A DNA stretch of 64,000 bases from a virus. The notes under the pieces are model-generated. The model saw nothing but the letters and a program-made list of their open reading frames with translations, made no database searches and had not been told where the DNA came from. Below are positions 30,642 to 49,786 of this stretch, one piece after another; position 1 is the first letter of the stretch, and every line of letters starts with the position of its first letter. The stretch spans positions 1 to 64,000 of the IMG/VR virus record IMGVR_UViG_3300019880_000001. One strand, written 5' to 3'. The position numbers and the translations under genes are program-made.

Positions 30642-30643
30642 GA

Positions 30644-30760: not shown

Positions 30761-30778
30761 ATCAGGAGAAGAGAAGTC

Positions 30779-32095: not shown

Positions 32096-32112
32096 ACAAC
32101 GGACCGAGTACG

Positions 32113-32162
32113 ACGTTATGCGGGCGGACGTGGGGTCTCTCGCGTCCGCCCGTAACGTTTTT
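32113..32162 (+). terminator. rho-independent terminator
   Basis: cgggcggacg...cgtccgcccg stem followed by taacgttttt. Confidence 0.7.
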
Positions 32163-32173
32163 AGGCCCAAGAA

Positions 32174-32773
32174 ATGACGCAGGACGCGCTTCAACTCAGA
32201 CGAGATCGTGATCGCAAATATGCGAGCGAGAAGCGCGCTTCTATGTCGAAGTTGGACAAGAAGGCGTACCTAGCCAAAGAGCGAGAACGGGGTCGCCGTC
32301 GTTATTTGGACCCCGATAAGAAGTCCGGGCGAGTGCGCACGAAAAAGAGAATCGAACAACGGAAGCTCGCAGAGGGGATCTGCGTGTCTTGTACGGAGCT
32401 AGCCACGTGCGCGCGGTTCTGCTTCTACCACTGGCTGGTGAACATCGGCGGCAAGTACGGGTTGAGGGTCAAAAACGGAGGGGTCGAGACTTTGAAAGCG
32501 CTTTGGGGCGAGCAAAACGGCCTGTGCGCGCTCACCGGAGAACTACTAGTTCCGGGGCAAAATGCTTCCGTCGATCACATTCTTCCTCGCTGCCGTAACG
32601 GCCGTAACGAAAAAAGCAATCTCCAGTGGGTGACAAAAGAGGTCAACTACTTCAAGCGCACACGAACCAGCTCGGAGCTTGTTAGAATGTCCTTGAAAGT
32701 CGCTCATCACGCCGAACGTGACGTCAGATCGAACGTCCTTCAGTTCAAGAAGACGTCAGAAGGAAAGGGTTGA
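32174..32773 (+). CDS. HNH endonuclease (free-standing, homing-like)
   Basis: QNGLCALTG...SVDHILPR..GRNEKSNLQWV..VNYFK; lower GC than its flanks. Confidence 0.85.
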   Translation: MTQDALQLRRDRDRKYASEKRASMSKLDKKAYLAKERERGRRRYLDPDKKSGRVRTKKRIEQRKLAEGICVSCTELATCARFCFYHWLVNIGGKYGLRVKNGGVETLKALWGEQNGLCALTGELLVPGQNASVDHILPRCRNGRNEKSNLQWVTKEVNYFKRTRTSSELVRMSLKVAHHAERDVRSNVLQFKKTSEGKG

Positions 32774-33384
32774 GTCACATGCAGCCGCACGACCACCAAA
32801 TTCGCAATCTTGCTTTGTACGCTCCGAAGATCGCCTTCGGGATGATGGCCGGCGTCCCCCGCGTGCCGTTCATCGCAGACATTCCGATCCAGTTCTCCTC
32901 GTCGACGGTCAACGCGCCGCCGGTCGTTCAGAACTTCCAGAACAACCTGACGCAAGACACGGTCATCGAGCGGATTGCGTACAACCTCGGTCAGCCGAAC
33001 AGCTTCCCCGGGAGCCCGTTCCAGTCGACGTACTTCAACCAGCTCAAGCAGAGCGGGCAGATCGGCGTCGGCGTGCAAATGGCCGTGTACGGCGGTCCCA
33101 AGTACAACGTCAACGACACCTTCACCGATCTCGGCACCCTCGCAGACGTGTTCGCGGTGACGTGGCCCAACGGGTGGCCGCTCCAGAAGCAGAGCAACGT
33201 GAAGGTGAGCGCAATCCTCACGCAGACGCCGGTGAGCGTACCGTTCAACATCACCATGACGTTCCTCGGGTGGCAGTTCCTCTCGAAGGAGCTCGACGAT
33301 CTTTCAGACGAGGAAGCGCGCGCGCGGTTGCGCAAGCTCGGCGTCGAAACTCCCGACCTGAAGATTCTGCTGTCCAACGGCTGA
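32770..33384 (+). CDS. putative second (small) capsid protein
   Basis: Beta-rich 204 aa protein; C-terminal NITMTFLGWQF parallels KLAIKIKGWEM of 30779. Confidence 0.5.
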   Translation: MSHMQPHDHQIRNLALYAPKIAFGMMAGVPRVPFIADIPIQFSSSTVNAPPVVQNFQNNLTQDTVIERIAYNLGQPNSFPGSPFQSTYFNQLKQSGQIGVGVQMAVYGGPKYNVNDTFTDLGTLADVFAVTWPNGWPLQKQSNVKVSAILTQTPVSVPFNITMTFLGWQFLSKELDDLSDEEARARLRKLGVETPDLKILLSNG

Positions 33385-33385
33385 A

Positions 33386-34276
33386 ATGAACGAGCGCATC
33401 GACAACGTGATTCGATTGCAGGCACGCCCAGACGGCGTGGCGCCATCGATCCGTTCGATCCTCCACAACGGCCGAAACGAGATCGTCACCAACGGCCCGA
33501 ACTCGGAGTTCGGGTTCATCGGAAGCGATCCGTACAACACGAACGCCTACACCGGCCTCGTCGTTCCGGCGGTACCCAGTGGGACGATCGGAAACGCGCG
33601 CTACCTCTTCGTGCTCGCGCGTCAGAGTTTCAGCACTGGAGAGCAGAGCTCGGAACACCGCGGCGTGCGCCTCGTCGGAATTCGGCAGTACGCCGAGCTC
33701 ATCGCGCGTCTTCCGGCTCGTGTCGCGCCGCTTGCCGCCAGCGGCCCTCCCGCCGGCAGCACCGTCACGTTCCGCAAGGAGATCACGAGCCCGCTCTGGC
33801 ACCCGCAGGACGGCAACATCTCCTGGCACGTGATGATCATCAACAAGGTGCAGCGCGATACGCGCAACCCCGCCAACACGGACGGGATCATCTACCAGGA
33901 CGCGTTATCGCCCGCGCTCATCTACCAGACTTTGGCGCCGTACACGCCTCCGAACGGCGGACGCCCGTGGGGCACTCCGCTCGGCGCGAGCCTCGGCAAC
34001 ATCCACGAGCTTCGATACCCCTGGCGCACCGAACGGAGCGAGCGCGTGCTCGACATTCCGATTCCGGTGCCGTGCGACGTCGTGCTCTTCGCGAGCGTTC
34101 GTCAAAACGACCCGACACTCAACCCGGTCTTCACCGAGGCGACTGTTGTCACGAGGCAGTTCGCCGCGTTGTCTCCCGAAGACCAGTTCATCGCCGCGTA
34201 CCCCGCGTCTGCTCAATACGGCGCCATCGCCGGCTCGCTCGTGTTCGATCAGAACCTCGGAGCGTGCGTCCCATGA
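33386..34276 (+). CDS. putative virion structural protein
   Basis: Beta-rich 296 aa protein co-transcribed with the capsid candidates. Confidence 0.55.
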   Translation: MNERIDNVIRLQARPDGVAPSIRSILHNGRNEIVTNGPNSEFGFIGSDPYNTNAYTGLVVPAVPSGTIGNARYLFVLARQSFSTGEQSSEHRGVRLVGIRQYAELIARLPARVAPLAASGPPAGSTVTFRKEITSPLWHPQDGNISWHVMIINKVQRDTRNPANTDGIIYQDALSPALIYQTLAPYTPPNGGRPWGTPLGASLGNIHELRYPWRTERSERVLDIPIPVPCDVVLFASVRQNDPTLNPVFTEATVVTRQFAALSPEDQFIAAYPASAQYGAIAGSLVFDQNLGACVP

Positions 34277-34500
34277 TCAACGGAGGCGCGTACGTACTCT
34301 CGAGCGCGATCGGAGGCTTGGTCTCTGGCGCTATCGGTGCGTCCGTCGCCGAGTCTTCTGATTCGCATCCGGTGCTCAAGGGAGCTCTCGTTGTTGCGGC
34401 TCTCGATGCGCTTCTGGCGACCGCCATCTACGCTGCCATCTCGCAGCCCATACTCCCGCAAGCCGGCGTGAGTGGACTGCACAACCCGAGGTTCCCGTGA
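34273..34500 (+). CDS. glycine-zipper membrane protein 1 (ends NPRFP)
   Basis: Two hydrophobic segments; ATGA-coupled. Confidence 0.7.
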   Translation: MINGGAYVLSSAIGGLVSGAIGASVAESSDSHPVLKGALVVAALDALLATAIYAAISQPILPQAGVSGLHNPRFP

Positions 34501-34730
34501 GCCGCGCCGGAGCTGCGTTCGGAAGTGCAGTCGGGCTCGCGCTCGGCGGCGCGTTTGGTGGGTACACCGTCCTCAGCCTCAAGCAAGGACGCGTTACCGA
34601 CAAGACACTGTTCGACGGCGCCGTTGTAGGCGCTTTCGTCGGGACCATCATCGGTGCCGCACTCGGCGCCGGACCCAAAGAGCCAGCTCAGGTCGGAACG
34701 GGACACCCTCTTACTCCGAGGTTCCCATGA
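34497..34730 (+). CDS. glycine-zipper membrane protein 2 (ends TPRFP)
   Basis: Two glycine-zipper segments. Confidence 0.7.
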   Translation: MSRAGAAFGSAVGLALGGAFGGYTVLSLKQGRVTDKTLFDGAVVGAFVGTIIGAALGAGPKEPAQVGTGHPLTPRFP

Positions 34731-34945
34731 ACCGCACGGGAGCCGCTTTGCTCGGTCTCGCAATAGGAGGCGTCATCGGTGAAATCGCCGGGCGCTCCCT
34801 CGAGAAAGGGCACGGAGAGGATGCCGAGCTCGAAGGCGCCCTTGGCGGCGGTGTGCTCGGTGCGGCGCTCGGTTCCGTTCTCTTCGCCACTGTGGCATCT
34901 CCTCCGCAACAGCAGACGCATGTCTCGCAGGCAGGGTTTCCATGA
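34727..34945 (+). CDS. glycine-zipper membrane protein 3 (ends AGFP)
   Basis: Two glycine-zipper segments. Confidence 0.7.
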   Translation: MNRTGAALLGLAIGGVIGEIAGRSLEKGHGEDAELEGALGGGVLGAALGSVLFATVASPPQQQTHVSQAGFP

Positions 34946-35655
34946 CAACGCCGGCGCAAGCGTACGGGCATCCGACTCTCGACGACGTCCCCGTTTCCGG
35001 ACCGACCGATCCGGGGATCCTCAAAGCGGACTGCTGGTTCGCTCAACACGTTTTACCGACACCGCAACAGGCCGCGTGCGTCGACTGTAAAGGACCAATT
35101 CCAATGTGGGCAAAAACCTCGGGCGTGGGTGAGCAGATTTCGTTCGGCGGAGCGCGCGCTCGCGGCTTCTCGCTCGCCGCACCAGGCGACCCGGACGCTT
35201 GGGTTCAACTCACGCCGGCGCAGCAGACGTGGGTCGTGAACTCGATCCGAACGCTCGACTCGAAGATCCGAGAGCAGACGCACACCACGTGCCCTGGCAT
35301 GCAGACGCCGAGCATCACGGGCATGGCGGGGTGTTTTCAGAACTGGTTCAACGGCGCGCACCTCGGGCTGACGAACCGCGCCGGCGCCCCCGTCGTGCTC
35401 CGCACCGACGGCGTCTTCGATCAGGACACGCTCGACGCGCTTCGCACCGTCACTTCGCTCGACGCGAAGAACTACCCCACCCCGTTCCCGGGTACGGAAG
35501 CGGCGGGCATCGCCCCCGCATCCAAGAAGCTTTCCACCGGCGCCATGGTCGGTATCGCCGCTGCTGGCGCGACCGTTCTCGGTGGGATCGCCTACGTCGC
35601 CATGCACGGCAAGAGCAAACGCAAGGGTCGTCGGACTCGAAGGAGCAAGCGGTAA
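34942..35655 (+). CDS. PG-binding-like protein with C-terminal TM and basic tail
   Basis: FQNWFN..LRTDGVFDQDTLDAL; PASKKLSTGA followed by TM and KSKRKGRRTRRSKR. Confidence 0.7.
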   Translation: MTTPAQAYGHPTLDDVPVSGPTDPGILKADCWFAQHVLPTPQQAACVDCKGPIPMWAKTSGVGEQISFGGARARGFSLAAPGDPDAWVQLTPAQQTWVVNSIRTLDSKIREQTHTTCPGMQTPSITGMAGCFQNWFNGAHLGLTNRAGAPVVLRTDGVFDQDTLDALRTVTSLDAKNYPTPFPGTEAAGIAPASKKLSTGAMVGIAAAGATVLGGIAYVAMHGKSKRKGRRTRRSKR

Positions 35656-37133
35656 TGTCGTTCTACAGAGTCACGCCGGGGGAGTCCCCGGCCATGATCG
35701 CACGCAAGCTCGGCACGTCGGTGTCGGCCCTCATCGGCGCCAACGGCCACAAGCCGACAACGGTCGTCGCCGGCAAGCGCACGTTCCAAGCGCTGCGCTT
35801 CAACGAGCTCTTGCACAAGCCTCGTGCAGGCGTCGGAGCGCTCGGTGAGCCCGGCACGCTCGGAGTCACGCCGGCGGATCCGGCAGCTCCGCACGCGCTG
35901 ATCGCGCAAGGAAGCAGCGGCTCGGACGTCGCGCTCTGGCAGAAGATCATCGGCGTCACGGCCGATGGTTCGTTCGGATCGGGAACTGCCGCAGCAACCA
36001 AGTCGTGGCAGACCGCTCACGGGCTCAACCCAGACGGCGTCGTCGGCCCCAACACGTGGGCGAAAGCGCTCGGCAACGCCTCGAGCGCACCGGTGCCTGC
36101 TCCCGTCGCATCCGGCGCGAGCCTCGCAATGGCGGCCGGCGCCGCGTACTCGGCTCTGAACCTGGATCCGAACTACTGCACGAACGTCGCTCGCGCAGGC
36201 ACTCCGGTGAACACGGCCGTCCACAACTTCAAGGCAGCGTGGAACGCCGCCAACCCGAGCCGCGCAGTGCCCATCGGCACCGGCAAGTACGAGCCAGTCG
36301 TGGCTTCTGCGCTCTCGTCGGCGCTCGGCGGAGTGACCGTACCTGCCGGTTGCGGCGCCGGGGCGGCGCAGCCTGCCCCCGCGGCCCCCTCGACGCCGGC
36401 GGCTCCGGTCCCCATGCCGGAACCGACCGTCACCCCCGCCCCCACACCGGCTCCGACGGCCTCGAGCGCCTACAGCGGCGCACAGATCGCCGCTGCCACG
36501 GCGATGAACTCGGCGCTCTCAGCGCACGGCTACAAGCAGGCCGATCAAGGGCTGTACGCGGCGTTCCAGCGCTCGATGGGGATCACGGCCGACGGGTACC
36601 CCGGAACCGGCACGATGGGGAAGCTCAAGGCGGTGCTCGCCTCCGCCGGCATCCCCATGGCCGCGGTACCCGTGTACCCGTGGCGCGCGGGCGCCTACGA
36701 TGGCGTGAACGCTCCCACGCAGAGCTCGTGGTCGGGAGCGTCCGCAACGCCCGCGCCCCCCGCCGTCGCTCCGCCCCCGCCTCCCTCGAGCGGCGGTATC
36801 GCCCCTCCCCCTCCGGCACCTTCTGGCGGCGGCACGGCCCCTGCGGCTTCTGCCCCCGCAGCAGGAGGAAGCACGGCTCCCGTGCCCGTTGCCGCCGGCG
36901 GCGGCGCCATCGTGTCTCCCGCGGCGCCTGCATCGAAGAAGTTGAGCACCGGCGCGATCGTGGTCGGCGCGATCGGCGCGGCGGCACTCGTCGGGCTGAT
37001 CGCCATGGCGGCGACCGGTAAGAAGGGGCACCGCGGAGCTCGAGGCGCGCGAGGGCCGTCTCGTCGCAGCAAGCACAAGAAGCCCGCGCATCACGCGCAC
37101 AAGCCGAAGCGCAAGAGGAAGTCGAAGCGGTAA
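35655..37133 (+). CDS. LysM plus peptidoglycan-binding domain membrane protein
   Basis: YRVTPGESPAMIARK..LIGAN (LysM); GSSGSDVALWQ..ADGSFGSGT..WQTAHGLNPDGVVGPNTW (PG_binding_1); TM followed by a basic tail. Confidence 0.85.
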   Translation: MSFYRVTPGESPAMIARKLGTSVSALIGANGHKPTTVVAGKRTFQALRFNELLHKPRAGVGALGEPGTLGVTPADPAAPHALIAQGSSGSDVALWQKIIGVTADGSFGSGTAAATKSWQTAHGLNPDGVVGPNTWAKALGNASSAPVPAPVASGASLAMAAGAAYSALNLDPNYCTNVARAGTPVNTAVHNFKAAWNAANPSRAVPIGTGKYEPVVASALSSALGGVTVPAGCGAGAAQPAPAAPSTPAAPVPMPEPTVTPAPTPAPTASSAYSGAQIAAATAMNSALSAHGYKQADQGLYAAFQRSMGITADGYPGTGTMGKLKAVLASAGIPMAAVPVYPWRAGAYDGVNAPTQSSWSGASATPAPPAVAPPPPPSSGGIAPPPPAPSGGGTAPAASAPAAGGSTAPVPVAAGGGAIVSPAAPASKKLSTGAIVVGAIGAAALVGLIAMAATGKKGHRGARGARGPSRRSKHKKPAHHAHKPKRKRKSKR

Positions 37134-37139
37134 TCCCCC

Positions 37140-37388
37140 ATGCGAGTCGTGATCGACAACGCGGCGCTCAGGAGGAACCGTTCCTGTAAGGGCGCCTACA
37201 CCAACCGGGAATGGGATCCTGCATTGCAGGCGCTCGTGTTCCCGAATTGGGAAGAGTCGGTCAAAGAGCTGCTGTCGACTCCGAAGGGGCTCGCTCGTCT
37301 CGAATGGTACGTCCGGCACAATCTCGTGCCGATGACGATGTCTGAATTCATCGCGGCGAAAGCCGCACGTGGAGGCTCCAGTGAGTGA
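37140..37388 (+). CDS. hypothetical protein
   Basis: 82 aa ORF within the operon. Confidence 0.55.
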   Translation: MRVVIDNAALRRNRSCKGAYTNREWDPALQALVFPNWEESVKELLSTPKGLARLEWYVRHNLVPMTMSEFIAAKAARGGSSE

Positions 37389-37887
37389 GTTCGTCGGACG
37401 TACAGGATCGATGCGTGTTTACTCGTACCCGGAAACTCGACGCAGCGGCAGCGATCCGCTGACGGCGTTCGCGCGGAACTTCGCGACGGGCACGAAGGGC
37501 AGCAATACGGTCGGGCCTGACGGCCTGGATATCGTGTGGAACGCGATCGACGTCGGAGTCGATCCTGACAACGACGTCCCGATCACTCCAAAAGCCACCG
37601 GGCAGTTGCTCATCACCGGCGTCATCACGCTCACCAACGGAACCGGCGCGCCGATAGACGCCGTCGTTACGGTGCATCTCGACGGTGTCGCCGCCGGACC
37701 GTCTTTCGCTACGATGACGATCCCCGCAGGCGCTACGGCCGCCATTCCTTTCATGGCAGAGACCGAAGTCATCTCGCCGCTCAACGAGGAGCACTTGATC
37801 CAAGTTTTCGTCGACGGCGACGGTTTGACCACCGTATCCGACGGCTCGGTGATCAACGTTCAAGAGGTCGTACTCTCGACCGGTTGA
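37381..37887 (+). CDS. beta-rich structural protein with a degenerate N-terminal tag
   Basis: GGAGG RBS; N-terminus MSEFVGRTGSMRVYSYP. Confidence 0.65.
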   Translation: MSEFVGRTGSMRVYSYPETRRSGSDPLTAFARNFATGTKGSNTVGPDGLDIVWNAIDVGVDPDNDVPITPKATGQLLITGVITLTNGTGAPIDAVVTVHLDGVAAGPSFATMTIPAGATAAIPFMAETEVISPLNEEHLIQVFVDGDGLTTVSDGSVINVQEVVLSTG

Positions 37888-37898
37888 AGGAGACGCGC

Positions 37899-38081
37899 AT
37901 GCCCAAGCTGATTCACCAGGAGACGATGTGCTGCGGGTACAAGAAGTGCCCGGAGCTCAAGATCTTCGAAGACGGCTCCGTCGAACTCAGCGACAACGAC
38001 GAGGAGATCGGTTCGGTCGGAACCCTCAAGCTTCGTCCCGAAGTGATGTCTCGCCTCGTCGAGATCTACTCGAAAATCTGA
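37899..38081 (+). CDS. small hypothetical protein (CC..CP)
   Basis: AAGGAG RBS; MPKLIHQETMCCGYKKCP. Confidence 0.6.
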   Translation: MPKLIHQETMCCGYKKCPELKIFEDGSVELSDNDEEIGSVGTLKLRPEVMSRLVEIYSKI

Positions 38082-38084
38082 ACC

Positions 38085-39260
38085 ATGACCCGCATCATCG
38101 GTAGGGGCAGGTACGCCACGAGCGTATACCCGAGCAGTCCAAGCGGCGGCTCGGGCGCTGGCGGCGAAGTACTGCCCTTCTCGAATTTGCGCTACCTCGA
38201 TCCGGCAACGACACACGCGGCGCCGCACACGGGATCGGTCAGTAACCCGTGCGTGACGGTCGCCGAGATCGCCGCGCTGACCCCCGGGTTCATGGTGATC
38301 CAGGTCGCCGGAAGCCCAACGGACGACCCGGCGCTGATCCCCGCCGGAACGTTGTGCGGCATCACGGGAATGCCGCAGGTCGGTTTCTTCTTTCCGTCGA
38401 TGACGCTCGAAGCGAGCGCGAATGTTTCGATGCGTGACGTGTACTTCGTCAACATCGGCGAGCAAGAGGGCGGCGGAGCGGCGCAGCTCAATGTCGTGCT
38501 CGCCCTCGACCCGTCGGAATCGACCTCGTTCGCGAATCAGATTCGCCAGATAGATCTCCCGAACTCTCAGGTCTCGCTGACTCGTTGCAACGTCTACTCG
38601 TCGACTAGCGCGACGTTCTTGACGCTCTACCAGTGTCGTATTTCGAATCTCGGTGGAAACCCCGCGCCTGACATCACGATGAACAACGGCGGGTTTTTCT
38701 ACGCCGAAGGCACCGTGTTCAGTTCTTCTGTGCCGTCCACCATCACGCTCGACACGAGCGGAGGACGATTCGTCGAATGCACGTTCACCGGAGCCGTGAC
38801 GATCGACAATGCGACTGGGATCGCGACGTTCGATCAAATTTCGTTGGATAGCCTCAACGCGGCGGGGGGTACTATCACTACTCCCGAGAACCTGGCTCTG
38901 TCTCCGGCGTCGTTGATCGTTCCTATGATCGGAACGCAGACCGTCGCGGCCAGCGCCGTTCTCACGATCGGAGCTAACGCTTCTGCCGTACCTCAGTACG
39001 CATCCAAAGCGACCGCATTCATCCCGCAGGCCGCCGCCGTCGGAGAGTCATTGGCGATCACGCTCGTCATCGCGGGAGGCGCCGTGATCGGGTCAGTGAC
39101 CGTAGACGATACGACTCCCGCCGGCGCCGTAGACATTCCGCTCATAACGCCGAAAGTTCCGATTCCGTCGGCCGGGGTGCTCCTTGCCGATCTCAACTAC
39201 ACGGCCGGAGGCGGCCCAACGCCACTTGCCGCAACCGTTGTCCGCGTCGATTTGATTTGA
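38085..39260 (+). CDS. spike-like protein A (IGRGRY tag, beta-helix-like body)
   Basis: [16 protein letters not shown], Gly linker, beta-solenoid-like sequence. Confidence 0.7.
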   Translation: MTRIIGRGRYATSVYPSSPSGGSGAGGEVLPFSNLRYLDPATTHAAPHTGSVSNPCVTVAEIAALTPGFMVIQVAGSPTDDPALIPAGTLCGITGMPQVGFFFPSMTLEASANVSMRDVYFVNIGEQEGGGAAQLNVVLALDPSESTSFANQIRQIDLPNSQVSLTRCNVYSSTSATFLTLYQCRISNLGGNPAPDITMNNGGFFYAEGTVFSSSVPSTITLDTSGGRFVECTFTGAVTIDNATGIATFDQISLDSLNAAGGTITTPENLALSPASLIVPMIGTQTVAASAVLTIGANASAVPQYASKATAFIPQAAAVGESLAITLVIAGGAVIGSVTVDDTTPAGAVDIPLITPKVPIPSAGVLLADLNYTAGGGPTPLAATVVRVDLI

Positions 39261-39273
39261 AAGAGGTATTCCA

Positions 39274-40503
39274 ATGAGCCGAGTCATAGGTCGAGGTCGC
39301 TACGCCACCGAAACGTACCCGTCAGGCCCCGGAGGCGGAGGCGGCGCCGGCGGCGCGAGCGTTCCGTTCGCTCGGCAGCGTTTCATCGACGGGGATACGG
39401 CGCAGACCGGATTGAACGGATCGGCCGCGGAACCGTACGAGACCATCGAGCAGTTCATGACTGCGCGGGACAACACCATCTCGGCGGCTGATTCTGCGGC
39501 GAACTTCGTCGGGTGGCTCATGCCGGCGCTCGCCGGGTACGTGGAAGACGTTGCATTCCGCGCTCGGTGCTCGACGGAGCTCCGAGCCGATTCCATGTCG
39601 GTGCCTGGTACCGGCGGCGTGACCATCGACGGTGATATTTCGTGGACCAACACGTCAGGTACCGCGGCGGCGCCGGCGGCCATTGCTTCGCTTCACAACA
39701 TCAACGTGACGGGCACCATTACGGTGACCGACAACGCCGAGTCTCCCGAATTGCTATTCTCCATCAGCGGAGACGAAGAGCCTGGAGGATCCTCTGCGGT
39801 CATAGGCGGGTTCGATTCCAGCACGACCACGACGTTGGCGTCGATATCGCTCAACAACGCGCAGTGCACCGGCGATCTCACCGCAGGGGTCGCGGCCGAC
39901 AGCGCTGTGGTGATCCTCACAGGCGGATCTATAATTACCGGAGACATCACCGCAAAAGCACTTCAATGCAACAACGCGGTCATCGACGGAGCCGTTACGG
40001 TAAACGCGGCTGGATTTGCGATTTTCCGCGCTTCTGCTTTCGCAGGGGCATGTGCGCTCACGGCTGCCACCTCATCGTTCGATGGGGACTCCTGGCTTAG
40101 CTTCTTGGCAAACGGCGGAACTCGTGTTGCAGGAACGACTGTGCTCGTCACAGGAGGCGCCAGTACCGCTCTCGTAGAAGGTGCGGCTCTGACAGGCGCG
40201 TCTACGAACGTGTCTCTGAACGGCACGGGAGCAACGGCTGGTTTCACTGGCGCTAACTCCGGCAACCACTACACGACGTCGAACGGGACCCCGACCACCG
40301 TCACACTCAAAACCGGCGGCGGAGAGTTGGTGGGCGACACGATGCTCATCACGAAGACGGATCTCGGCGCGAACGTTGTAGCGGTCAAGAACAACGCCGG
40401 AGCGCAGATCGCATCGATCCCAACGCTCGCCAAAGGGTTCGTGCTCGCACGATTCAATGGCTCCGACTGGGTCTTCGTGTCGGGAGGTTCGATGCTGGCA
40501 TGA
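39274..40503 (+). CDS. spike-like protein B (IGRGRY tag)
   Basis: [16 protein letters not shown], Gly linker, FIDG..GS.AEPY.TI motif; C-terminal FNGSDW. Confidence 0.7.
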   Translation: MSRVIGRGRYATETYPSGPGGGGGAGGASVPFARQRFIDGDTAQTGLNGSAAEPYETIEQFMTARDNTISAADSAANFVGWLMPALAGYVEDVAFRARCSTELRADSMSVPGTGGVTIDGDISWTNTSGTAAAPAAIASLHNINVTGTITVTDNAESPELLFSISGDEEPGGSSAVIGGFDSSTTTTLASISLNNAQCTGDLTAGVAADSAVVILTGGSIITGDITAKALQCNNAVIDGAVTVNAAGFAIFRASAFAGACALTAATSSFDGDSWLSFLANGGTRVAGTTVLVTGGASTALVEGAALTGASTNVSLNGTGATAGFTGANSGNHYTTSNGTPTTVTLKTGGGELVGDTMLITKTDLGANVVAVKNNAGAQIASIPTLAKGFVLARFNGSDWVFVSGGSMLA

Positions 40504-40835
40504 GCGGATTCCTGCTCATCTCAGCGCTCGTCGGCGCAACTCTTCTCGTCGTACGCAGCACCCTCTTTGATCCGATTCGTCGGATTTGGCCCGCGCTCTT
40601 GCGATGCTCCCAGTGTTTCGGCACGTGGGTAGGCATCGCCGCGAGCGCGAGTGGCGTCGTGCCGGTAGGGCACGGGCGGATTCTTGACGCGCTCATCGTC
40701 GGAGCGGCGACAAGCTTCTTGTCGCTGCTAGCCGATGCTGTACTCTTGTATTTGCTCGGCGATCCGAGCGAGGAGCCCGAATCCCATGCGCCGAAAACTG
40801 ACGACTCTGAAAGCAAAGATGGGGCACAGCCATAA
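40500..40835 (+). CDS. DUF1360-like membrane protein
   Basis: LFDPIRR..LLRCSQCFGTWVG plus TMs. Confidence 0.65.
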   Translation: MSGFLLISALVGATLLVVRSTLFDPIRRIWPALLRCSQCFGTWVGIAASASGVVPVGHGRILDALIVGAATSFLSLLADAVLLYLLGDPSEEPESHAPKTDDSESKDGAQP

Positions 40836-41081
40836 CGGTTGCGCTCGCGCGCTCGCGGACATCTCGCTCTACCGAGAGCACCGAAACAACCACAACGTGC
40901 ACGCCAACGTCGGCGGTGCGGTTTCGCCTCACTACGACACTGGTTTTAGCGGATGGTCGAACGCCTCTCGCCCGAGAGACAGCGCCATCTCTTTGCGATC
41001 CGTTACGGCACTCAGCTAGTTCGATCGGAGTAAGCCGAAAAATATTCAGTCGGCGATTTTTCGTCGAATCGAAAGCCTGAA

Positions 41082-42202
<1,121 letters not shown>

Positions 42203-42206
<4 letters not shown>

Positions 42207-42934
42207 GCACCGCGGGCAACGGAAACAACACCAAGTACCTTCAAGACAACGCGAACCTAGGCACTTTCAACGGCGCGTGCTCGGTGTGTTTTTGGGTATG
42301 CCCCTCCGGCAACACATTCGGCCCCGGCACGGACGGGTTCGTCACCGTTCTCGATCTCGGCGTGAACGGCGGCGGCGGCAACTTCGACTGGCAATTCTAC
42401 TTTGACATTTCTCCGAACAACCTCACGCTGCACTACACGAACTACACAAGCGGGACGCCGACCGTCGATCAAGTAGTAGGCACACTCAGCGCGACAGTGA
42501 TGTCCTTCGTCGCACTGACACACGACCCGGCTGCCGCCGGTGGCACCACGAAATTGTACCTAGGAACCGGACCAGGATCCGCCTTGTCGTTGGTTGCTAC
42601 GCTTACCGGCGATGTGTGGACCGGCACCATGGGGAACCTCACGCTCTTCAACTGGTTCGGAGACACCGAACCGCTGAACGGCGAAATGACGGGCTGGCGC
42701 CAATGGTCCGTAGTGCTCACGCAGACGGAGCTCGAGAACGAGTACTCCTCGATCAAACCGAAGAGCCGAATATCGAATCTCGTACGGTTCTACCCGTGGC
42801 TCAACGAGCCGCAGGACAACATCGACCAGTCGGGGAGCGGCTTCAACATGACGAAGACGGGCACGCTCGCCACCGCACGCCGTATGCCGTCGGTCCCGTG
42901 GGGTTCGCCTCCGGTCGCGATGGGCTACGGTTAA
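42203..42934 (+). CDS. LamG/concanavalin-like lectin domain protein
   Basis: [44 protein letters not shown]. Confidence 0.75.
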
Positions 42935-44010
42935 CGCGTTATCCCCGCGTACCAACTCGGACTAGAGATCATGTCGAAATATTGCTCGTACAGCGGGGCC
43001 ACGTTGCCCATCGTGTAGATCTGAGCGTTCTCTAGACACCGCTCAGGAGATATTTGATCTACGTGCATCGCGGCGTTCAAGAACTGCTTGAAGCTCCGAC
43101 ATCGAAATCCGGTGATTCCGTGCGCGACCGTTTCTGGGAACGCACCCCAATCGCTTGTGATGACCGGGGTTCCGGAAAAACCAGCCTCGACAACGACACC
43201 GCCGAACGGCTCGAGGTAGTGTGTTGGCACGAAGAGAGCCTTGGCACCCGCTAGCAGCTCGCGCCGCTTCGCGACGTCTGCGATGCCGGCGTACTCGACG
43301 TGATCGTCTTTTGACGGTTTCTCACCGGGGGCACCGGCGATGACGAGTTTCGCCCCGAGCTCGCGCGTGACGTCGACGGCGATCTGATACCCCTTTTGGT
43401 GCGTCATTCGCCCTAAAAACAGAAAGTAGTCGCTCTTCTTCGCGCGAAACTCGAAATCGCCGGGGTCGAAGTAGTTGGGGACGACCGCGTCGTACCAAAT
43501 ACCGGTGCGCTGCGCTTGAAGACCGTACACGTGATGCATCCAAGCGTACGACTCGAAGCACCGTCGTTGCGTAAACACACCCTCGTAGCCCACACCGAAC
43601 TCGACGGCGGCGGTACCGTTCAAAGCGTGCGCGATACTCTCTTGCCCGCGTCCCATGATCAAACAGAGAAATTCGTCTGGACGCCCGACGATGCGTTTCC
43701 GAGCTCGCCGGACGGCCTTGTTATTCCAAAGATTGACGTGATGTCCGCTCAACGGAGCGGCGTGCCAGATCTTCTTCTCGTACCACTCTTGGCCGCCGAA
43801 GAGCCTGTCCTGATCTTCTACCGAGAACACCTCGACGTGTTCCGTCAGCTCGCCGAGATCGTCCGAGCCCTCGTTACCGTAGTGGATCACTTCGTGGCCA
43901 CGCTCACTCATCATTTTGCAGAAACGCTGCACTTTGCCGGTGTACGCACATAGACCGTACTTCTTGTTCGACACGGTGTGCGCGAGAGCAAAAACGTGCA
44001 GCCTGGCCAT
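42931..44010 (-). CDS. GT-B (GT4-like) glycosyltransferase
   Basis: FLFLGRMTHQKG, EPFGGVVVEAGFSGTPVITSDWGAFPETV. Confidence 0.92.
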   Translation of the reverse strand: MARLHVFALAHTVSNKKYGLCAYTGKVQRFCKMMSERGHEVIHYGNEGSDDLGELTEHVEVFSVEDQDRLFGGQEWYEKKIWHAAPLSGHHVNLWNNKAVRRARKRIVGRPDEFLCLIMGRGQESIAHALNGTAAVEFGVGYEGVFTQRRCFESYAWMHHVYGLQAQRTGIWYDAVVPNYFDPGDFEFRAKKSDYFLFLGRMTHQKGYQIAVDVTRELGAKLVIAGAPGEKPSKDDHVEYAGIADVAKRRELLAGAKALFVPTHYLEPFGGVVVEAGFSGTPVITSDWGAFPETVAHGITGFRCRSFKQFLNAAMHVDQISPERCLENAQIYTMGNVAPLYEQYFDMISSPSWYAGITR

Positions 44011-44627
44011 CAGAGAACCCCCCGCACGGCACTGTATGCACGCCCAAAGCACCCGTCATGCGAGAGCACGGTGACGTCGCCCCCGGACCAGTTCTCGTTG
44101 CTCCCCTCGTCCAGCCACTCGTCCAAGCTAGACGCGGTGAGCATATGTGGGTGGCCGTCGTGAGGCGGAAGATCAATCCACTCGAAGATGCGAACTCGTC
44201 GCCCGAGCGTCATCGCGTTTCGAATGATCAGCTTCGGGTCTTCGACGTGCTGGAGGCAATTGTAGATCCACACCTCATCGAAAGGCTTGTGCCCCCCATC
44301 GAGAACGTTCTGGAAACGCTCGATCACGGTCTCGCCTGGGTCGTGCAGAGCCTCGATACCGGTCATGGCGTACCGCAAGTAGACCCACGCCGGATACTGC
44401 AACGGGTCGGTCACGACACGCCTCTTGGCCCCTCGAGTCTTCAAGAGCATCGAGGCGGGCCCCGCGCCGATGTCCAAGATGTGAGAGTGCTCCGGTACCA
44501 CGAAATCCCAGTGCTGGCGCTTGATCCCCATGAGAGAAGCGTACACGTAGTGCTTGCGCTCCTCGTAGAAGGTGTTGCTGCAATCCCCCCAAAAAGCCGC
44601 CTCAAAGTCCTGCGCCGGGTTTCCCAT
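44010..44627 (-). CDS. class I SAM-dependent methyltransferase
   Basis: ILDIGAGP, FDEVWIYNCLQHVEDP. Confidence 0.85.
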   Translation of the reverse strand: MGNPAQDFEAAFWGDCSNTFYEERKHYVYASLMGIKRQHWDFVVPEHSHILDIGAGPASMLLKTRGAKRRVVTDPLQYPAWVYLRYAMTGIEALHDPGETVIERFQNVLDGGHKPFDEVWIYNCLQHVEDPKLIIRNAMTLGRRVRIFEWIDLPPHDGHPHMLTASSLDEWLDEGSNENWSGGDVTVLSHDGCFGRAYSAVRGVL

Positions 44628-44703
44628 TGTTTTACGTTCGTATACTCCACGATCGCCGAACGAGTGTCCAGATCAGGTGTCGTGGTACCCTTCCGGACGA
44701 GCC

Positions 44704-45258
44704 ATGGCGCGTCGAATCCCCTGGAAAGCCATTGCGATAGGCGGTGCCGTCGCTGGGGGTGTCAGCGCTATTGTACTTGCCAGCCGCAAAAAGCTTCCCT
44801 CGTCTTTGCCGGCCCGGCGCGTGGCGCTCATCGGAGACTCGTACGCGGTAGGGCTCGGGCCGGAGCTCCAAAAGCTCCTCCCCGACTTCAAATATGAGGG
44901 GCACGTTGGGAACACCACTGCGGCGTGGGCTGCGCACAGCGCAAGCTGCGGCACGTGCGGCGACTGGCTCACGACGTTCAAGCCCGACGTCGTGCTCGTG
45001 TCTCTCGGAGTCAACGACGGCGTCTCGCCGAACCGAAAGAACTACAACGACATCGTGAGCGCGCTGCACGGCATCGGTGCTCGAGTTGTTTGGATCGAAC
45101 CTCCGGCAGGTGTCATCATCCCGGCGATACGCGCCGCTATCACCTCGCTCGGCGTGACGACGGTGCCTCCCACTCAAACACCTCTCGCCGGCGACGGACT
45201 GCATCCGCAAAGCTACGGACCGTGGGCTCAAGAAGTCTTCCAGGCGGTGCGCCAATGA
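44704..45258 (+). CDS. membrane-anchored SGNH/GDSL hydrolase
   Basis: N-terminal TM; LIGDSY, SLGVND, DGLHP. Confidence 0.88.
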   Translation: MARRIPWKAIAIGGAVAGGVSAIVLASRKKLPSSLPARRVALIGDSYAVGLGPELQKLLPDFKYEGHVGNTTAAWAAHSASCGTCGDWLTTFKPDVVLVSLGVNDGVSPNRKNYNDIVSALHGIGARVVWIEPPAGVIIPAIRAAITSLGVTTVPPTQTPLAGDGLHPQSYGPWAQEVFQAVRQ

Positions 45259-45488
45259 TGCTCAACGGACGCCCGACGATCGGGTTCGGAGACGAGCACA
45301 CCGTCCCGCCGCTAGAGCTCCGTACGGCCTACACCGTGAAGGGGCTCGGCATCGGCGCCGGGGGACTCATCGGTTACCTCACCTTCGGGCCCTTGGGGAT
45401 GGTTCTCCTTGGAGGCGCCGGCTGGTACGTGGGCAACCGCGTCGCCGTCAACGCCGAGAAGAAATTCGTAGAAGGACAACACACATGA
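45255..45488 (+). CDS. small glycine-rich membrane protein
   Basis: LNGRPTIGFGD followed by TM segments. Confidence 0.65.
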   Translation: MMLNGRPTIGFGDEHTVPPLELRTAYTVKGLGIGAGGLIGYLTFGPLGMVLLGGAGWYVGNRVAVNAEKKFVEGQHT

Positions 45489-47305
45489 GGATCATCGGCA
45501 GAGGACGTTACGTCTACGGAACGTACCCAACGACAAGCGCGTCGGCAACGAGCGGGCCCCCCAGCGGCCCCGCCGGCGGAGACCTGGGGGCTACGTACCC
45601 AGACCCAACCGTCGTGGCGCTCGAGGAAACGAGCACGCCGGCGAGGCTCGCGATCGGCGCAATCCCAGACGGCGAATTGCTCATGCGTTCGGGGCTGGCG
45701 GTCATCGGCGCAGGCGCCGCCATGGGAGCCGCCATCACAGTGCGTCGGATCAGCGACAGCAACCTTGGCGGCACGAAGCTGGTCGACATAGCGACCACCA
45801 GCCTACGCGACGGCACGATCTCGTGGGTCTACAGCGTCGGAGCCCTCTTTCAGCTCGTGAAAGCGCCGAGCGCGGCACTTCTCGCGGCGGTCGACGGGAT
45901 CACCGTCGTCGCGTCTACCGCAACCGCAGGATCCGTGTGGGTACGTCTCGAGGCCACGGCAAACCAGCGGTTTGGGGTCGAGCCGCCGCTCTTCATCGAT
46001 CCTTCCGCCGGCAGCGACGACAACGACGGACTCCTCGTCGGAAACCCACTCAAGAGCGCCGACGAATGGTCCCGCCGAACCAACGGCGTCACCATGCTCG
46101 CGTCTTTCACGGTCACCTGCGCCGCCGGCGACGTCGGTAGCTTCTTCGGCAAACAATACTTCGACAACCGCAGCACAGCGGTCACGATCAGCATCGTCGG
46201 CACGAAGAGCCTCAGCGCTACCATGACGGTCTCTTCGATCACGCCGGAGAACAGCGCACCCGGAGTACAACAAGAATTCTGGATGGTAAAAACCGGAGGT
46301 CCGGTGCTCACCGGCGCGGAGCGACTTCGGATACTTACGAGTTCTATTCCGGCGAACGTCGGAGCCACAGGATGCGTGCGGGGGTTCGAGGGAAGCGATC
46401 CGACGCATCCGTATACCTCCACGTGGAGCAACGGCGCGACCTCACTGGCAAACCTCTTCCCCGCTGCGGGCGACACGTTCGCGGTCGAGACACTGCTCAC
46501 CACGTTCCGCGCGGACGACATGGACACGCGCAACATCGGCCAAGGTTGCATCCTGTCGTTCATCGACATGGTTCATCCGGCGACCACCAGCGTACCTGGC
46601 ATCTCCCCAAGCTCCAACAACGCGCGCGTTACCCCGTCGGGGGACCACCTGTTCATCTCGTGCATCTTCGGCACCACAGGGGGCGGGATCGTTCGTATCG
46701 ACAACGATCAGCTCTGGTTCCGCGGATGCGAGTTCAAGTCGCAAGTCCATTTCGTTGGCGGCGGCCCCTCAGGAATCGTGGCCTATCAATGCACGTTCCG
46801 TGTAGGCGCGGTCATAAATTGTTCGTTCTCTCAAACAGGATGCGTATTCGAAGGTGTCACCTCGACCGCCACTTTCTGGTCCAACACCGGAGACGCCCTG
46901 TTCTCGCGCATCACAGGCACCGCGTTCGGGGTGGGAGGCGTGTTTGCAACTGTCCTAGGCAGAGTTTGGACGCCGCTCGCCGGAGCTCGCAGCGCGGTGA
47001 CGATTGGAATCAGCGTCTCCACCGGCGGTACCCTGAACTCCCAAACGTTCGCGCAGATCAACGATAGTATTTCAGCATCAACGGGCGCCATAGTCATGAA
47101 CGGGATCGTCGTACACGGGTACACCGTCGATCCGAACGCGAATTCTCGCGTGCAGTCGGTCAACACCACGATAGGTGCGCTGATCTACATTCACGACATC
47201 GCTGGAGATCCGGTGAACCCACCCGTGTCGGGGTGCTTCCAATACTCAGTCGCCGGGCAAATGCGTCTGATGAATCCCGCCGGGGTTGTCACACCACTCA
47301 ACTGA
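45485..47305 (+). CDS. spike-like protein C (IGRGRY tag, pectin-lyase-like beta-helix)
   Basis: MRIIGRGRYVYGTYP; AGGDLGATYPDPTV; FIDPSAGSDDNDGL...PLKS; repeated C-x-F turns. Confidence 0.75.
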   Translation: MRIIGRGRYVYGTYPTTSASATSGPPSGPAGGDLGATYPDPTVVALEETSTPARLAIGAIPDGELLMRSGLAVIGAGAAMGAAITVRRISDSNLGGTKLVDIATTSLRDGTISWVYSVGALFQLVKAPSAALLAAVDGITVVASTATAGSVWVRLEATANQRFGVEPPLFIDPSAGSDDNDGLLVGNPLKSADEWSRRTNGVTMLASFTVTCAAGDVGSFFGKQYFDNRSTAVTISIVGTKSLSATMTVSSITPENSAPGVQQEFWMVKTGGPVLTGAERLRILTSSIPANVGATGCVRGFEGSDPTHPYTSTWSNGATSLANLFPAAGDTFAVETLLTTFRADDMDTRNIGQGCILSFIDMVHPATTSVPGISPSSNNARVTPSGDHLFISCIFGTTGGGIVRIDNDQLWFRGCEFKSQVHFVGGGPSGIVAYQCTFRVGAVINCSFSQTGCVFEGVTSTATFWSNTGDALFSRITGTAFGVGGVFATVLGRVWTPLAGARSAVTIGISVSTGGTLNSQTFAQINDSISASTGAIVMNGIVVHGYTVDPNANSRVQSVNTTIGALIYIHDIAGDPVNPPVSGCFQYSVAGQMRLMNPAGVVTPLN

Positions 47306-47308
47306 AAA

Positions 47309-48013
47309 ATGCAGATCGAAACCTCACTGCTCGCGCTCCCTGGAATCGGCACCGTCACGCCGACGTTCCTGTGCTCGCTCGTGGGCATGGCCGTGCGCCA
47401 CGGTTGGGATCCGAACGGCATCGCGCTCGTCATCAGCGAAGAGAGCCTCTTCAACCCCTCCGCGAAGAACCCCCACAGCTCGGCCAGCGGCCTGATCCAG
47501 TTCATCGATTCGACGGCAGCGTCCCTCGGGACTACGACCGCCCAGATCCGCGCCATGAGTGCCGAAGAGCAACTCCCGCTCGTGGAACGCTTCTTCCAGA
47601 CGAGCCTCAACGGGAAAATCCCCGCTCGCATCGAAGACTATTTTCTCTCGGTGCTCGGGCGCCCCGATCTCATCGGGAAACCAGACGACACGCCGGTCTT
47701 CGTCAGAGGTTCGGGCGGCTACGCCGGCAACCCACAGATCGACATCGGCGGGGACGGCGTCATCACGGTCGGCGACACGCGCGCGTACATGCAGCGAGTG
47801 CTCCAACGGGCGAAAGGCACGGTCGGCACTTACCCCGCGATCTGTTACGAGAACGTCACGGCGCCTTCGACGCGAAGCAACGGCACGCTTGCTGCTTTTG
47901 CGCTCGGTACGATCATGGCCGCTGTGGGGTACGGCACCTACAAGGTGTTGAGCGCGTTGAGCCCGAGACCAGAATCCACGGCTCTACCGCCGCCGGCTTT
48001 CAGGCGCACATGA
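47309..48013 (+). CDS. lytic transglycosylase (SLT-like) with C-terminal TM
   Basis: ISEESLFNPSAKNP.SSASGLIQF; D.GGDGVITVGD; TM near the C-terminus. Confidence 0.85.
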   Translation: MQIETSLLALPGIGTVTPTFLCSLVGMAVRHGWDPNGIALVISEESLFNPSAKNPHSSASGLIQFIDSTAASLGTTTAQIRAMSAEEQLPLVERFFQTSLNGKIPARIEDYFLSVLGRPDLIGKPDDTPVFVRGSGGYAGNPQIDIGGDGVITVGDTRAYMQRVLQRAKGTVGTYPAICYENVTAPSTRSNGTLAAFALGTIMAAVGYGTYKVLSALSPRPESTALPPPAFRRT

Positions 48014-48459
48014 CGAACAAGACGCTCCTCTGGCTCTCGGCAGGCGGAGCCGCCGCGGGGGCCGCCATCCTCCTCTGGAAAAGGACGGGAGTGGATGTAC
48101 CCACAACTCCGTCCATTCCTGTGGCAGCGCCCGGCGAGGCCACGAAAGTCACGCTCGCGGTACCCGCAGGTTGGCGTCGCGTCACCGGATCCGAAGTGTC
48201 CGCGCTCCCCGAGCTCGCATCGCAAGCGAACTCGCTCATGAACACGCCGGGTTTCACGTCGATGCGGTACGGAACGCTCGCCCCGTTCGTAGCTTCCGAT
48301 GGCAACACGTACGCGACGTGGATCGAACAGCACTACCATGAGCCGGGTGGCTCTACGAAGCTGTGGGGGCTACACCATGGGGTGACGGTACTAGCCCAAG
48401 CGAGCGCGCCCTCGGTTCTCGCCGACGAGTGGCCCGGCGTCAGACGTGGAAGCACATGA
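48010..48459 (+). CDS. membrane-anchored 'PAGWRR' domain protein
   Basis: N-terminal TM; VPAGWRRV...DGNTY..IEQH...HHGVTVL. Confidence 0.7.
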   Translation: MTNKTLLWLSAGGAAAGAAILLWKRTGVDVPTTPSIPVAAPGEATKVTLAVPAGWRRVTGSEVSALPELASQANSLMNTPGFTSMRYGTLAPFVASDGNTYATWIEQHYHEPGGSTKLWGLHHGVTVLAQASAPSVLADEWPGVRRGST

Positions 48460-49040
48460 TCCTCCGCCCCAATATTCTCACCAAGCACACTTCGTTCGAG
48501 GTACTGCGCGCCTACAGCATCGCGCACGTTCGCGTGTTCACAACGCCCATCACCGGCACGCTCGCCGAGATGCTCACCGCGTGGAGTGCGTTCGAGACCT
48601 GGTTTTGGAAACTCTGTCACGACGACAATCTCACGAACATGCGCGGCACGTGGCGAGGCAACGGTACGACGTTCAAAGCGAGCGAGATCGACGCGCACGG
48701 CAAGGAGATCTTCTTGCCCCCGAGCGCGACGAACGTCTTTCGCGCCTACACGGACTCCCCCGGAGTGCCGGCAATAGTCGCCTCCGCTGAGGACAACATC
48801 CGTTTCGTCGGTACGGCGAGCAACCCCAGCGTGCGCCCGAATCGTTACCAAGAAGCGTGGGATGCGGCCCAGCGAGGCGACGTCGAAGGCTTCGTGATGG
48901 GGCTCGCGGAACCGAAGCTCCCCGGCGTCGAACACGTGCCCGGCTTCTTCACCGCGAACCCGCGCGTGTACCTAGCGGGGGTGCAGCATTGCCTCGACAC
49001 GCTCAGGCCCGACTTCGATACGTACGAAAGAGCACCGTGA
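48456..49040 (+). CDS. glucosaminidase/FlgJ-like muramidase
   Basis: AFETWF..DNLTNMRG..FRAYTD..RYQEA..FFTANPRVY resembles GH73 motifs. Confidence 0.6.
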   Translation: MILRPNILTKHTSFEVLRAYSIAHVRVFTTPITGTLAEMLTAWSAFETWFWKLCHDDNLTNMRGTWRGNGTTFKASEIDAHGKEIFLPPSATNVFRAYTDSPGVPAIVASAEDNIRFVGTASNPSVRPNRYQEAWDAAQRGDVEGFVMGLAEPKLPGVEHVPGFFTANPRVYLAGVQHCLDTLRPDFDTYERAP

Positions 49041-49243
49041 TCGCGCGATTGATCTGCTTGCTCCTCGGGCATTCACTCGATGAGCTCGCGGTGCTCGAGG
49101 GAGCCCAACCCCCTATCTACGTGACGCACGGCAGGTGCGCTCGGTGCAAGACGCCCGTCATCACGGTGCGTGATCTTCGCGACGAAAAAGACCAGCAAGC
49201 GGACGTCGATACGGTCGACGAGCGCTCAGACCGGTTGAAGTAG
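49037..49243 (+). CDS. small protein (LICLLLGH..CARC)
   Basis: Resembles DUF1660-like prophage Zn-binding peptides. Confidence 0.5.
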   Translation: MIARLICLLLGHSLDELAVLEGAQPPIYVTHGRCARCKTPVITVRDLRDEKDQQADVDTVDERSDRLK

Positions 49244-49786
49244 GCTCGTGAGCGGCTGAACGAGCCCGGCGCCGCTGAGACGTCTGCACTGTAGGGCGTT
49301 CGGCGCCGGAAGATCGTTCACCAAGTCGGCTTGGCTGAGGTAGGTCAACCGCACTACCGGAACGGACGGCAGTGCCACAGAGAATACGGTAGCCGCGCTG
49401 AAAACCTCAGCGGCGCCTGCGGGGTTGCTGTTGAAAACACACGAGACCGGCGGTCCGGAGCCGCCGTCAATGTAGTTCCAAGTTGTGCCGCCGTCCAAAC
49501 TCACTTCGACACGTATTACGAGATTGATCGAGCCTGCTTGTGAGCTCGCTATCGTGAACACGAGAGCTCCGTCTAGAACATCGTCCGCTTCCCAGTCGGT
49601 GAACGTGATGACGACGTTTCCGCCCACACCCGGCACCGGTGTGAAGTCGCCCACCGGATCCAAGTTGCCTGAAGCGGTGTAGGCCGTTCCGTACTGCAAC
49701 AGCAACGGGTCACTGCCGCCTGCCGCAGCGGGCTTCTCTGGGTACGTTTCGGTCGCGTACCGGCCTCTGCCCATGAGCCTGCTCAT
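49226..49786 (-). CDS. spike-like protein D (GRGRY tag), inverted orientation
   Basis: [16 protein letters not shown] followed by a beta-rich domain (VEVSLDGGTTW). Confidence 0.75.
   Translation of the reverse strand: MSRLMGRGRYATETYPEKPAAAGGSDPLLLQYGTAYTASGNLDPVGDFTPVPGVGGNVVITFTDWEADDVLDGALVFTIASSQAGSINLVIRVEVSLDGGTTWNYIDGGSGPPVSCVFNSNPAGAAEVFSAATVFSVALPSVPVVRLTYLSQADLVNDLPAPNALQCRRLSGAGLVQPLTSLLQPV

Follow-up and report, generated by a model that had tools for sequence, protein, structure and literature searches.

The first 64,000 bases of the uncultivated virus record IMGVR_UViG_3300019880_000001 in IMG/VR (full length, 83,913 bases), the stretch analyzed here and hereafter called the window, encode a set of fiber- and spike-like proteins that share a short N-terminal peptide. 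Five open reading frames (ORFs), starting at 38085 (+), 39274 (+), 41082 (+), 45485 (+), and 49786 (-), open with M-x-x-[IVL]-[IM]-G-R-G-R-Y-x-x-x-x-Y-P, which we refer to as the tag. In a six-frame scan of the full record, the core GRGR[YFW] occurred exactly five times, each time 4 to 5 codons past an ATG, and all five matches fell within the 12 kb between 38.0 and 49.8 kb. The ORF check and the six-frame scan thus bear out an initial annotation of the window, which had reported five clear copies at these positions and had interpreted them as a plug-in system for receptor-binding proteins.

The gene at 38085..39260 (+) encodes a protein of 391 residues in which the tag is followed by a Ser/Gly linker and a beta-rich body of no known family; the orthologue in L002, the closest relative, shows 85% identity to it, with IGKGRYASEVYP as its variant of the tag. 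In its neighbor at 39274..40503 (+; 409 residues), a Gly linker leads into a tailspike-like body that its structural model identifies, at fold level only, as a right-handed parallel beta-helix. The Atlas model of this protein aligned over residues ~27 to 400 with five Beta_helix-bearing clusters (Beta_helix, NosD, DUF1565) at template modeling (TM) scores of 0.58 to 0.61 by query, and its feature neighbors are phage pectate-lyase-like tailspikes; Pfam gave no significant match. The claim that all bodies are unrelated did not survive for this pair, as 38085 and 39274 have their first ~60 residues in common, including a (V/L)PFxxxR(F/Y)(I/L)D motif, and fall into the same BLAST cluster. In the protein encoded at 41082..42206 (+; 374 residues), the tag is followed by ~190 residues of Gly-X-Y repeat, which form a collagen-like stalk, and then by a C-terminal head (~160 residues). 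Its uninterrupted Gly-X-Y repeats matched Pfam Collagen (PF01391) above the gathering threshold (E = 2.7e-16; 59.5 bits versus a cut-off of 27.2) and also account for matches to PHROG tail fiber families, while NCBIfam collagen-like adhesin models matched below their cut-offs; a stalk of this collagen-like type would be an obligate trimer. The two remaining genes encode a protein of 606 residues (MRIIGRGRYVYGTYP; 45485..47305, +) with a Ser/Thr/Pro/Gly linker and a body without known family, and a protein of 186 residues (49226..49786, -) with a Pro/Ala/Gly linker and a small beta-rich body.

A sixth gene, located at 37381..37887 (+) and encoding 168 residues from a GTG at 37381 (a longer ORF starts at 37369), carries a degenerate tag, VSEFVGRTGSMRVYSYPE, containing ...FVGRTGSMRVYSYPE.... 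An alignment beginning at residue 1 (E = 3e-12) links the encoded protein to one from the related virus G026 that opens with MAHRMGRNFARETYPERP, and the AFARNFATG motif of 37381 is also found in the canonically tagged metagenome proteins P0155, P0178, and P0254. Because the homologue in G026 has a proper tag, 37381 is confirmed, on the level of sequence homology, as a true member of the tagged set, and the degenerate copy proposed in the initial annotation is real. Pfam, PHROGs, and NCBIfam returned nothing for the tag or for the bodies of 38085, 45485, 49226, and 37381, and a phmmer search of PDB sequences found no match for 45485, 39274, or the head of 41082.

To describe the tag beyond the window, a 30-column profile was searched against 1.84 billion representative proteins (E <= 1e-3), yielding 233 matches. 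In all of the best 150 of these 233 the tag lies at residue 1, on proteins ranging from 33 to 1476 residues in length, and the consensus over the 150 is M-S-[HRY]-[IVL]-I-G-R-G-R-Y-A-[RT]-E-T-Y-P (IGRGRYARETYP), with G6, G8, R9, Y15, and P16 invariant or nearly so (149 to 150 of 150). At position 12, the tags of the window favor Thr, and most of their relatives Arg. Residues 17 to 30 of these 150 proteins comprise 61% Gly, Ala, Ser, and Pro compared to 38% in the rest, in agreement with the Gly/Ser/Pro/Ala linker that had been noted behind the tag.

At the DNA level, the canonical tag pattern occurred in 11 contigs among 2.9 million in IMG/VR. Ten of these encode a homologue of the putative major capsid protein at 30779, and the eleventh is a 65%-complete fragment with homologues of the same fiber module. 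A degenerate DNA pattern gave 35 matches in 27 related records and none when the pattern was reversed as a control. Twelve of the 27 related records were without the exact pattern, and a looser scan of seven of these 12, fetched whole, revealed variant tags in five, among them GRGR[T/R]A[R/S]ETYP in all four tagged genes of G023; LIGRPGQRSRETYP, ITGPRGGKSREAYP, LAGHRRGGRSPESYP, and RMGRNFARETYP in G026; IAGSRGRVVHGETYP and IAGYRGSRETYP in G020; and, ahead of a collagen stalk, ITGRHGRFEAYP in G024, whose capsid protein is only 44% identical. A sixth record, G012, held only a doubtful tag remnant, and a GRRGRYHGETYP variant is present in G002. The absence of the tag from apparently tag-less relatives was therefore rejected for most of them, given the variants found by the looser scan. 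Across 17 related genomes, all tags begin 4 to 5 codons past the start codon. The tag is confined to one virus lineage, consisting of uncultivated viruses with contigs mostly of 60 to 125 kb, for which we found 31 relatives of the 30779 capsid protein in IMG/VR and more than 400, all unnamed, in the metagenome protein collection. Among 50,697 GenBank phage records, no match was found for either the capsid protein or the tag. The literature searched contained no description of the tag (the query 'GRGRY' gave coincidental strings only), and that on large tailless soil viruses none of the lineage, which is without a cultured or described member.

Conservation of the tag is a matter of the peptide and not of the underlying DNA. 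Arg and Gly codons differ among the five copies in the window, and positions Gly6, Arg7, Gly8, and Arg9 of 39 distinct tags draw on the full range of six Arg and four Gly codons. Such varied codons at invariant positions indicate that selection acts on the peptide, as the initial annotation had proposed from the five copies. As a separate observation on codon use, 22 of the 35 Arg cases at position 7 among the 39 tags have AGA or CGA, and not the G- or C-ending codons that would be favored in a genome with a G+C content at third codon positions (GC3) of 75 to 90%; this preference may represent a 5' translational ramp.

In contrast to the fixed peptide, the bodies behind it are diverse. The 174 tagged bodies resolved into 75 BLAST clusters, 47 of them singletons, with the largest (26 members) containing 39274, a cluster of six tagged members containing 45485, and 49226 standing as a singleton. 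Among the 150 tagged relatives, Pfam identified collagen in seven, ice-binding-like beta-solenoids in two, and pectate-lyase-like or beta-helix domains in two, and Gly-X-Y repeats marked 13 of the 150 as collagen; the identifiable bodies are of fiber or spike type. In G020, a 39274-type head sits behind a long collagen stalk in place of the short Gly linker, an arrangement from which we derive the architecture of a tag, then a linker or stalk, then a head. The same genome encodes a tagged ORF of 1875 residues at 28109-33734 (L085/L086), with a long collagen stalk and two tandem 39274-type beta-helix heads in frame, followed by two further copies of this head at 33885-36242; these repeats represent either head duplication within one polypeptide or internal starts. 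Tags and bodies also re-assort, since the orthologue of 39274 in L002 (72% identical) carries the VYGTYP tag variant that in the window heads 45485. The claim of different bodies behind one tag is thus sustained both by the 75 clusters and by this exchange. Within genomes, tags on nonhomologous bodies resemble each other more closely at their variable positions than tags from different genomes do (identity 0.592 versus 0.504; permutation p = 2e-4), and in G023 Tyr10 is replaced by Thr or Arg in all four tags. A shared binding partner encoded by the same genome would produce this concerted variation.

We therefore consider, with moderate confidence, that the 16-residue N-terminal peptide is best read as a common virion-docking peptide. 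In our proposed mechanism, the peptide would serve as the common anchor by inserting at a single conserved site of the particle. The distal body would be interchangeable (for example, a beta-helix spike, a fiber of collagen with head, or a small beta domain) and connected to the peptide through either a flexible Gly/Ala/Ser/Pro linker or a collagen stalk. All five or six fiber and spike proteins would mount on the same socket, and new bodies would be acquired by recombination behind the tag. The observed anatomy of the tag, with its concerted variation within genomes, stands alongside selection at the peptide level, strictly N-terminal position, the linker, diverse fiber-like bodies, shuffling, and restriction to one lineage, and these latter features are what a plug-in docking peptide predicts. 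We infer a virion protein as the partner of the tag and host receptors as the targets of the bodies, and the choice among candidate partners is likewise a deduction. Several points weigh against this interpretation. The virus is uncultivated and has no relative in the GenBank phage records searched. Some tagged proteins are very short (33 to 80 residues) and fit a fiber role poorly, and some of these may be fragments. The likeness of tags within a genome could also be explained by recombination among tags. With regard to the capsid, the model is of moderate confidence, and its structural matches do not discriminate among particle types.

Attachment of receptor-binding proteins by a short N-terminal peptide is already known from adenovirus and some Klebsiella podophages. 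Crystals show the FNPVYPY peptide of the adenovirus fiber bound in the penton base (PMC3457955), and in some adenoviruses two kinds of fiber have the same tail (PMC4335501). In both adenovirus and the tagged proteins, a short conserved peptide lies within ~20 residues of the N terminus (ahead of a shaft and a distal head in adenovirus, and of a collagen-like stalk with head in 41082 or a tailspike-type beta-helix in 39274), more than one fiber type can share one peptide, and both peptides are aromatic and contain Pro (YP). However, the tag has no sequence similarity to FNPVYPY beyond Tyr-Pro, and adenoviruses have one to three fibers compared to five or six tagged proteins here and hundreds of bodies in the lineage. 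The comparison, first drawn in the initial annotation together with the plug-in reading, is a functional analogy without sequence relation, involving here a probable bacterial host; the plug-in reading itself agrees with the selection, position, linker, bodies, shuffling, and single lineage described above.

A second parallel is found in Klebsiella podophages of the KP32/K11/KP34 type, in which a conserved N-terminal peptide of the second receptor-binding protein (RBP2) docks on a T4gp10-like branching domain of RBP1 (PMC6872550), an interaction that has been validated experimentally (PMC13352976). There, too, a short conserved peptide directly precedes a beta-helix body of depolymerase type, and bodies are exchanged behind it, giving modular host range. 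In contrast, these are tailed phages with one primary RBP bearing a large anchor domain and one RBP bearing the peptide, whereas here every fiber is tagged; the peptide sequences differ, and Pfam and PHROG scans detected no T4gp10-like or other anchor domain and no tail genes among the ORFs covered, though divergent domains could escape such scans. In the Bacillus anthracis exosporium, the N-terminal peptide of BclA (residues 20-38) alone forms a stable complex with the trimeric BxpB, a beta-sandwich base (PMC10470788). As in 41082, the attachment peptide of BclA is followed by a collagen-like stalk and a globular C-terminal head; however, BclA belongs to a spore structure of a cell, uses another motif without sequence relation to the tag, and has its N-terminal domain cleaved before attachment. 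No exosporium leader or other NCBIfam model matched the tag or the first 40 residues. By analogy, the tag would work like the adenovirus, Klebsiella, and BclA systems, yet it appears to be a member of none.

If the tag is a docking peptide, its socket might be sought in the capsid module, which lies upstream of the tagged genes and comprises three candidates: the putative major capsid protein (30779-32095, +; 438 residues) and proteins of 204 residues (32770-33384, +) and 296 residues (33386-34276, +), the latter two without family or solved relative. An HNH gene (32174-32773, +) is inserted in this trio. All three proteins are beta-rich, adjacent, and present in all related genomes examined, with identities across relatives of 44 to 86% (30779), 37 to 90% (32770), and 32 to 83% (33386), and their GC3 of 0.83 to 0.90 is the highest in the window. 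A fold of 30779 predicted from the single sequence had a predicted local distance difference test (pLDDT) score of 28, and a model from a 34-row alignment reached 63.5 and showed a beta-sandwich that is not HK97-like. VIA matches of 30779 included jelly-roll capsid proteins, both single and double (SPV1, HCIV-1, HHIV-2, P23-77 VP16, and PRD1 P3), at Z scores of 4.7 to 5.5, placed amid unrelated beta-sandwiches and thus nondiscriminating. Foldseek searches of the model against PDB and BFVD found nothing at E <= 1e-3, and a profile search of PDB with 30779 was likewise negative. Its Atlas feature neighbors were viral jelly-roll coats at 0.85 to 0.86, under the lead threshold of 0.9. The modeled capsid fold is thus only weakly jelly-roll-like. 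A complex prediction of the tag (30 residues; alignment A4) together with 30779, 32770, and 33386, run without controls, scored 0.00 (mark, 0.32) and speaks neither for nor against binding.

With regard to particle type, ~80 ORFs were scanned with Pfam or PHROGs (in one scan, 25 of 37 matched families were checked), and no portal, tail, baseplate, HK97-capsid, or T4gp10-like family was found among them. A HerA/FtsK-type ATPase (53980-55983, -; DUF87), matching PHROG 2666, labeled terminase large subunit, was the sole packaging-like match found and had no clear homologue in six of seven related genomes. Because no portal, tail, baseplate, or HK97 family and only one packaging-type match were found, a tailless particle is plausible. 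We put forward, tentatively and as a minority view, a more specific possibility in which trimeric fibers and spikes are plugged by their tags directly into capsomers, or into a vertex protein, of undescribed large (60 to 125 kb) tailless bacterial viruses whose capsid is not HK97-like. Such particles would be covered by a mixture of five or six exchangeable proteins for host binding, all mounted on one universal socket, an independently evolved counterpart of the adenovirus fiber and penton.

Alternatively, the tag might not be the final anchor at all, but a signal for an assembly or processing factor, such as a chaperone, a modifying enzyme, or a protease, and might be trimmed. Adenovirus protease recognizes the consensus (M/I/L)-X-G-X|G, which tag residues 4 to 8 ([IVL]-I-G-R-G) fit, and candidate factors are encoded nearby, including a GT4 glycosyltransferase and a methyltransferase-like protein amid the tagged genes and a transglutaminase-like (papain-fold) protein (27881-28900, +) that is conserved in the structural module at 59 to 71% identity. 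The latter and a RadC-like JAB domain protein (24039-24716, +) are candidate maturation proteases; both are conserved lineage-wide and encoded just upstream of the capsid genes. However, the proteome shows no enrichment of the adenain-type motif (47 occurrences compared to 40.7 expected from shuffles), conservation extends over all 16 residues, including ETYP well past any such cleavage site, and relatives have conserved the tag but not the glycosyltransferase and methyltransferase. We regard a processing signal as unlikely.

A further alternative is a branched receptor-binding complex of the Klebsiella KP32 or CBA120 type, in which the tag would dock on another fiber or a small adaptor protein; the complex might sit on a tail beyond the reach of sequence searches. 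There are established precedents for branched systems that use a conserved docking peptide (PMC6872550, PMC13352976), two small genes (37884-38081 and 40786-41019) show synteny with tagged genes across seven relatives and are alternative adaptor candidates, and the PHROG matching the ATPase at 53980-55983 carries a terminase label. Against this stand the lack of any portal, tail, baseplate, HK97-capsid, or T4gp10-like family in the ORFs scanned and the tagging itself: because all five or six fibers carry the tag, none stands out as the primary, anchor-bearing protein. We thus consider such a complex quite improbable.

Short N-terminal peptides on otherwise unrelated proteins are also known from bacteriophage T4, where a capsid-targeting sequence sends internal proteins to the inside of the head and is removed by cleavage. 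The tag could likewise load cargo into the particle, in the manner of T4 internal proteins or encapsulin cargo peptides, which would accommodate its presence on many unrelated proteins of very different size and a basic and aromatic GRGRY that could bind DNA or scaffold. Yet the T4 sequence serves interior cargo, and the tagged bodies look like external fibers: those that can be identified are of external type (collagen triple helix, beta-helix spike, pectate-lyase-like) and not enzymes or DNA-binding proteins, making this explanation very unlikely. The tag could also be a signal by which the cell exports or sorts the proteins (through Sec, Tat, a lipoprotein or prepilin-like pathway, or some new route), placing them outside the cell or on the host surface; a known export signal was a case that the initial annotation had named as refuting its reading. 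Such a signal would share the N-terminal position and the flexible linker but can be set aside almost entirely, because the tag has no hydrophobic core, no Cys, lipobox, or twin-arginine context, and no matching NCBIfam signal model, and is confined to this virus lineage. The test asked for a hydrophobic core of 7 or more residues behind a basic N-region, along with RRxFLK for Tat, a Cys in a lipobox, or G|F-hydrophobic for prepilin; the longest hydrophobic run in the first 30 residues was 2 to 4 in 147 of 150 proteins and never above 6.

Relative to the systems in which peptide docking is known, what differs here is that every fiber of the virus uses the peptide, that one 16-residue peptide serves at least 75 sequence-unrelated bodies in the lineage, and that this lineage has no cultured or described member and no recognizable structural genes of tailed phages. 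Were the socket of the proposed docking peptide identified, the lineage would offer a large natural library of host range re-assortment by recombination behind a fixed plug, and foreign domains could be attached to a particle through the peptide as a minimal tag; should direct plugging into capsomers or a vertex prove true, hundreds of natural heads and a 16-residue display tag would be available. The tag also provides a precise sequence marker for adsorption proteins and genomes of this lineage in metagenomes.

Interspersed with the tagged genes are untagged ones that fit the same module. Directly upstream of the array and at the head of the fiber module in all relatives examined, 37884..38081 (+) encodes a conserved Cys-containing protein of 65 residues, with 50 to 65% identity in seven related genomes, where it always lies within the fiber module. 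It has a CCGxKxCP motif followed by DGSVE...DDD...GSVGxIKL and no Pfam, PHROG, or NCBIfam family; we take the pattern to recall small proteins of the DUF397 type, and a function as adaptor or regulator is our guess. A conserved basic protein of ~77 residues and no known family is encoded at 40786..41019 (+), overlapping the end of a membrane-protein ORF (40500-40835) and directly upstream of the tagged gene 41082. Its sequence pattern is MRRKLTTLKAK...SGWSNASRPRD.AISLR (family form, MRRKLxTLKxKxGHSxNG...YSGWSNASRPRDxAISLR). In G002, G020, G023 (with three copies), and G026, homologues immediately precede a tagged gene, which is usually collagen-like, and others lie in the fiber module of G012, G013, and L103.

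Further downstream, a ConA-like lectin (42200-42934, +; Laminin_G_3, E = 4e-6) begins in an overlap with the stop of the collagen-tagged gene 41082-42206, and may act together with that fiber, either as its partner or as a distal head encoded by a gene of its own. It is followed by the GT4 glycosyltransferase (42931-44052, -), the methyltransferase-like gene (44010-44627, -), and an SGNH/GDSL hydrolase (44572-45258, +), all three identified by Pfam and, like the lectin, untagged. A lytic transglycosylase is also interspersed with the tagged genes of the window. This mix of tagged genes, lectin, GT4 glycosyltransferase, SGNH hydrolase, and lytic transglycosylase is the make-up of an adsorption and entry module. 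Genes for peptidoglycan binding and lytic transglycosylase, along with metagenome-assembled genome (MAG) bins, point to a bacterial host, with only three, weak MAG matches (Binatia, Polyangiaceae). Finally, an exact 126-base overlap joins the end of the record (83788-83913) to its start (window positions 7-132), so that the genome is probably complete and either circular or terminally redundant; despite this end repeat, IMG/VR lists the record as linear.

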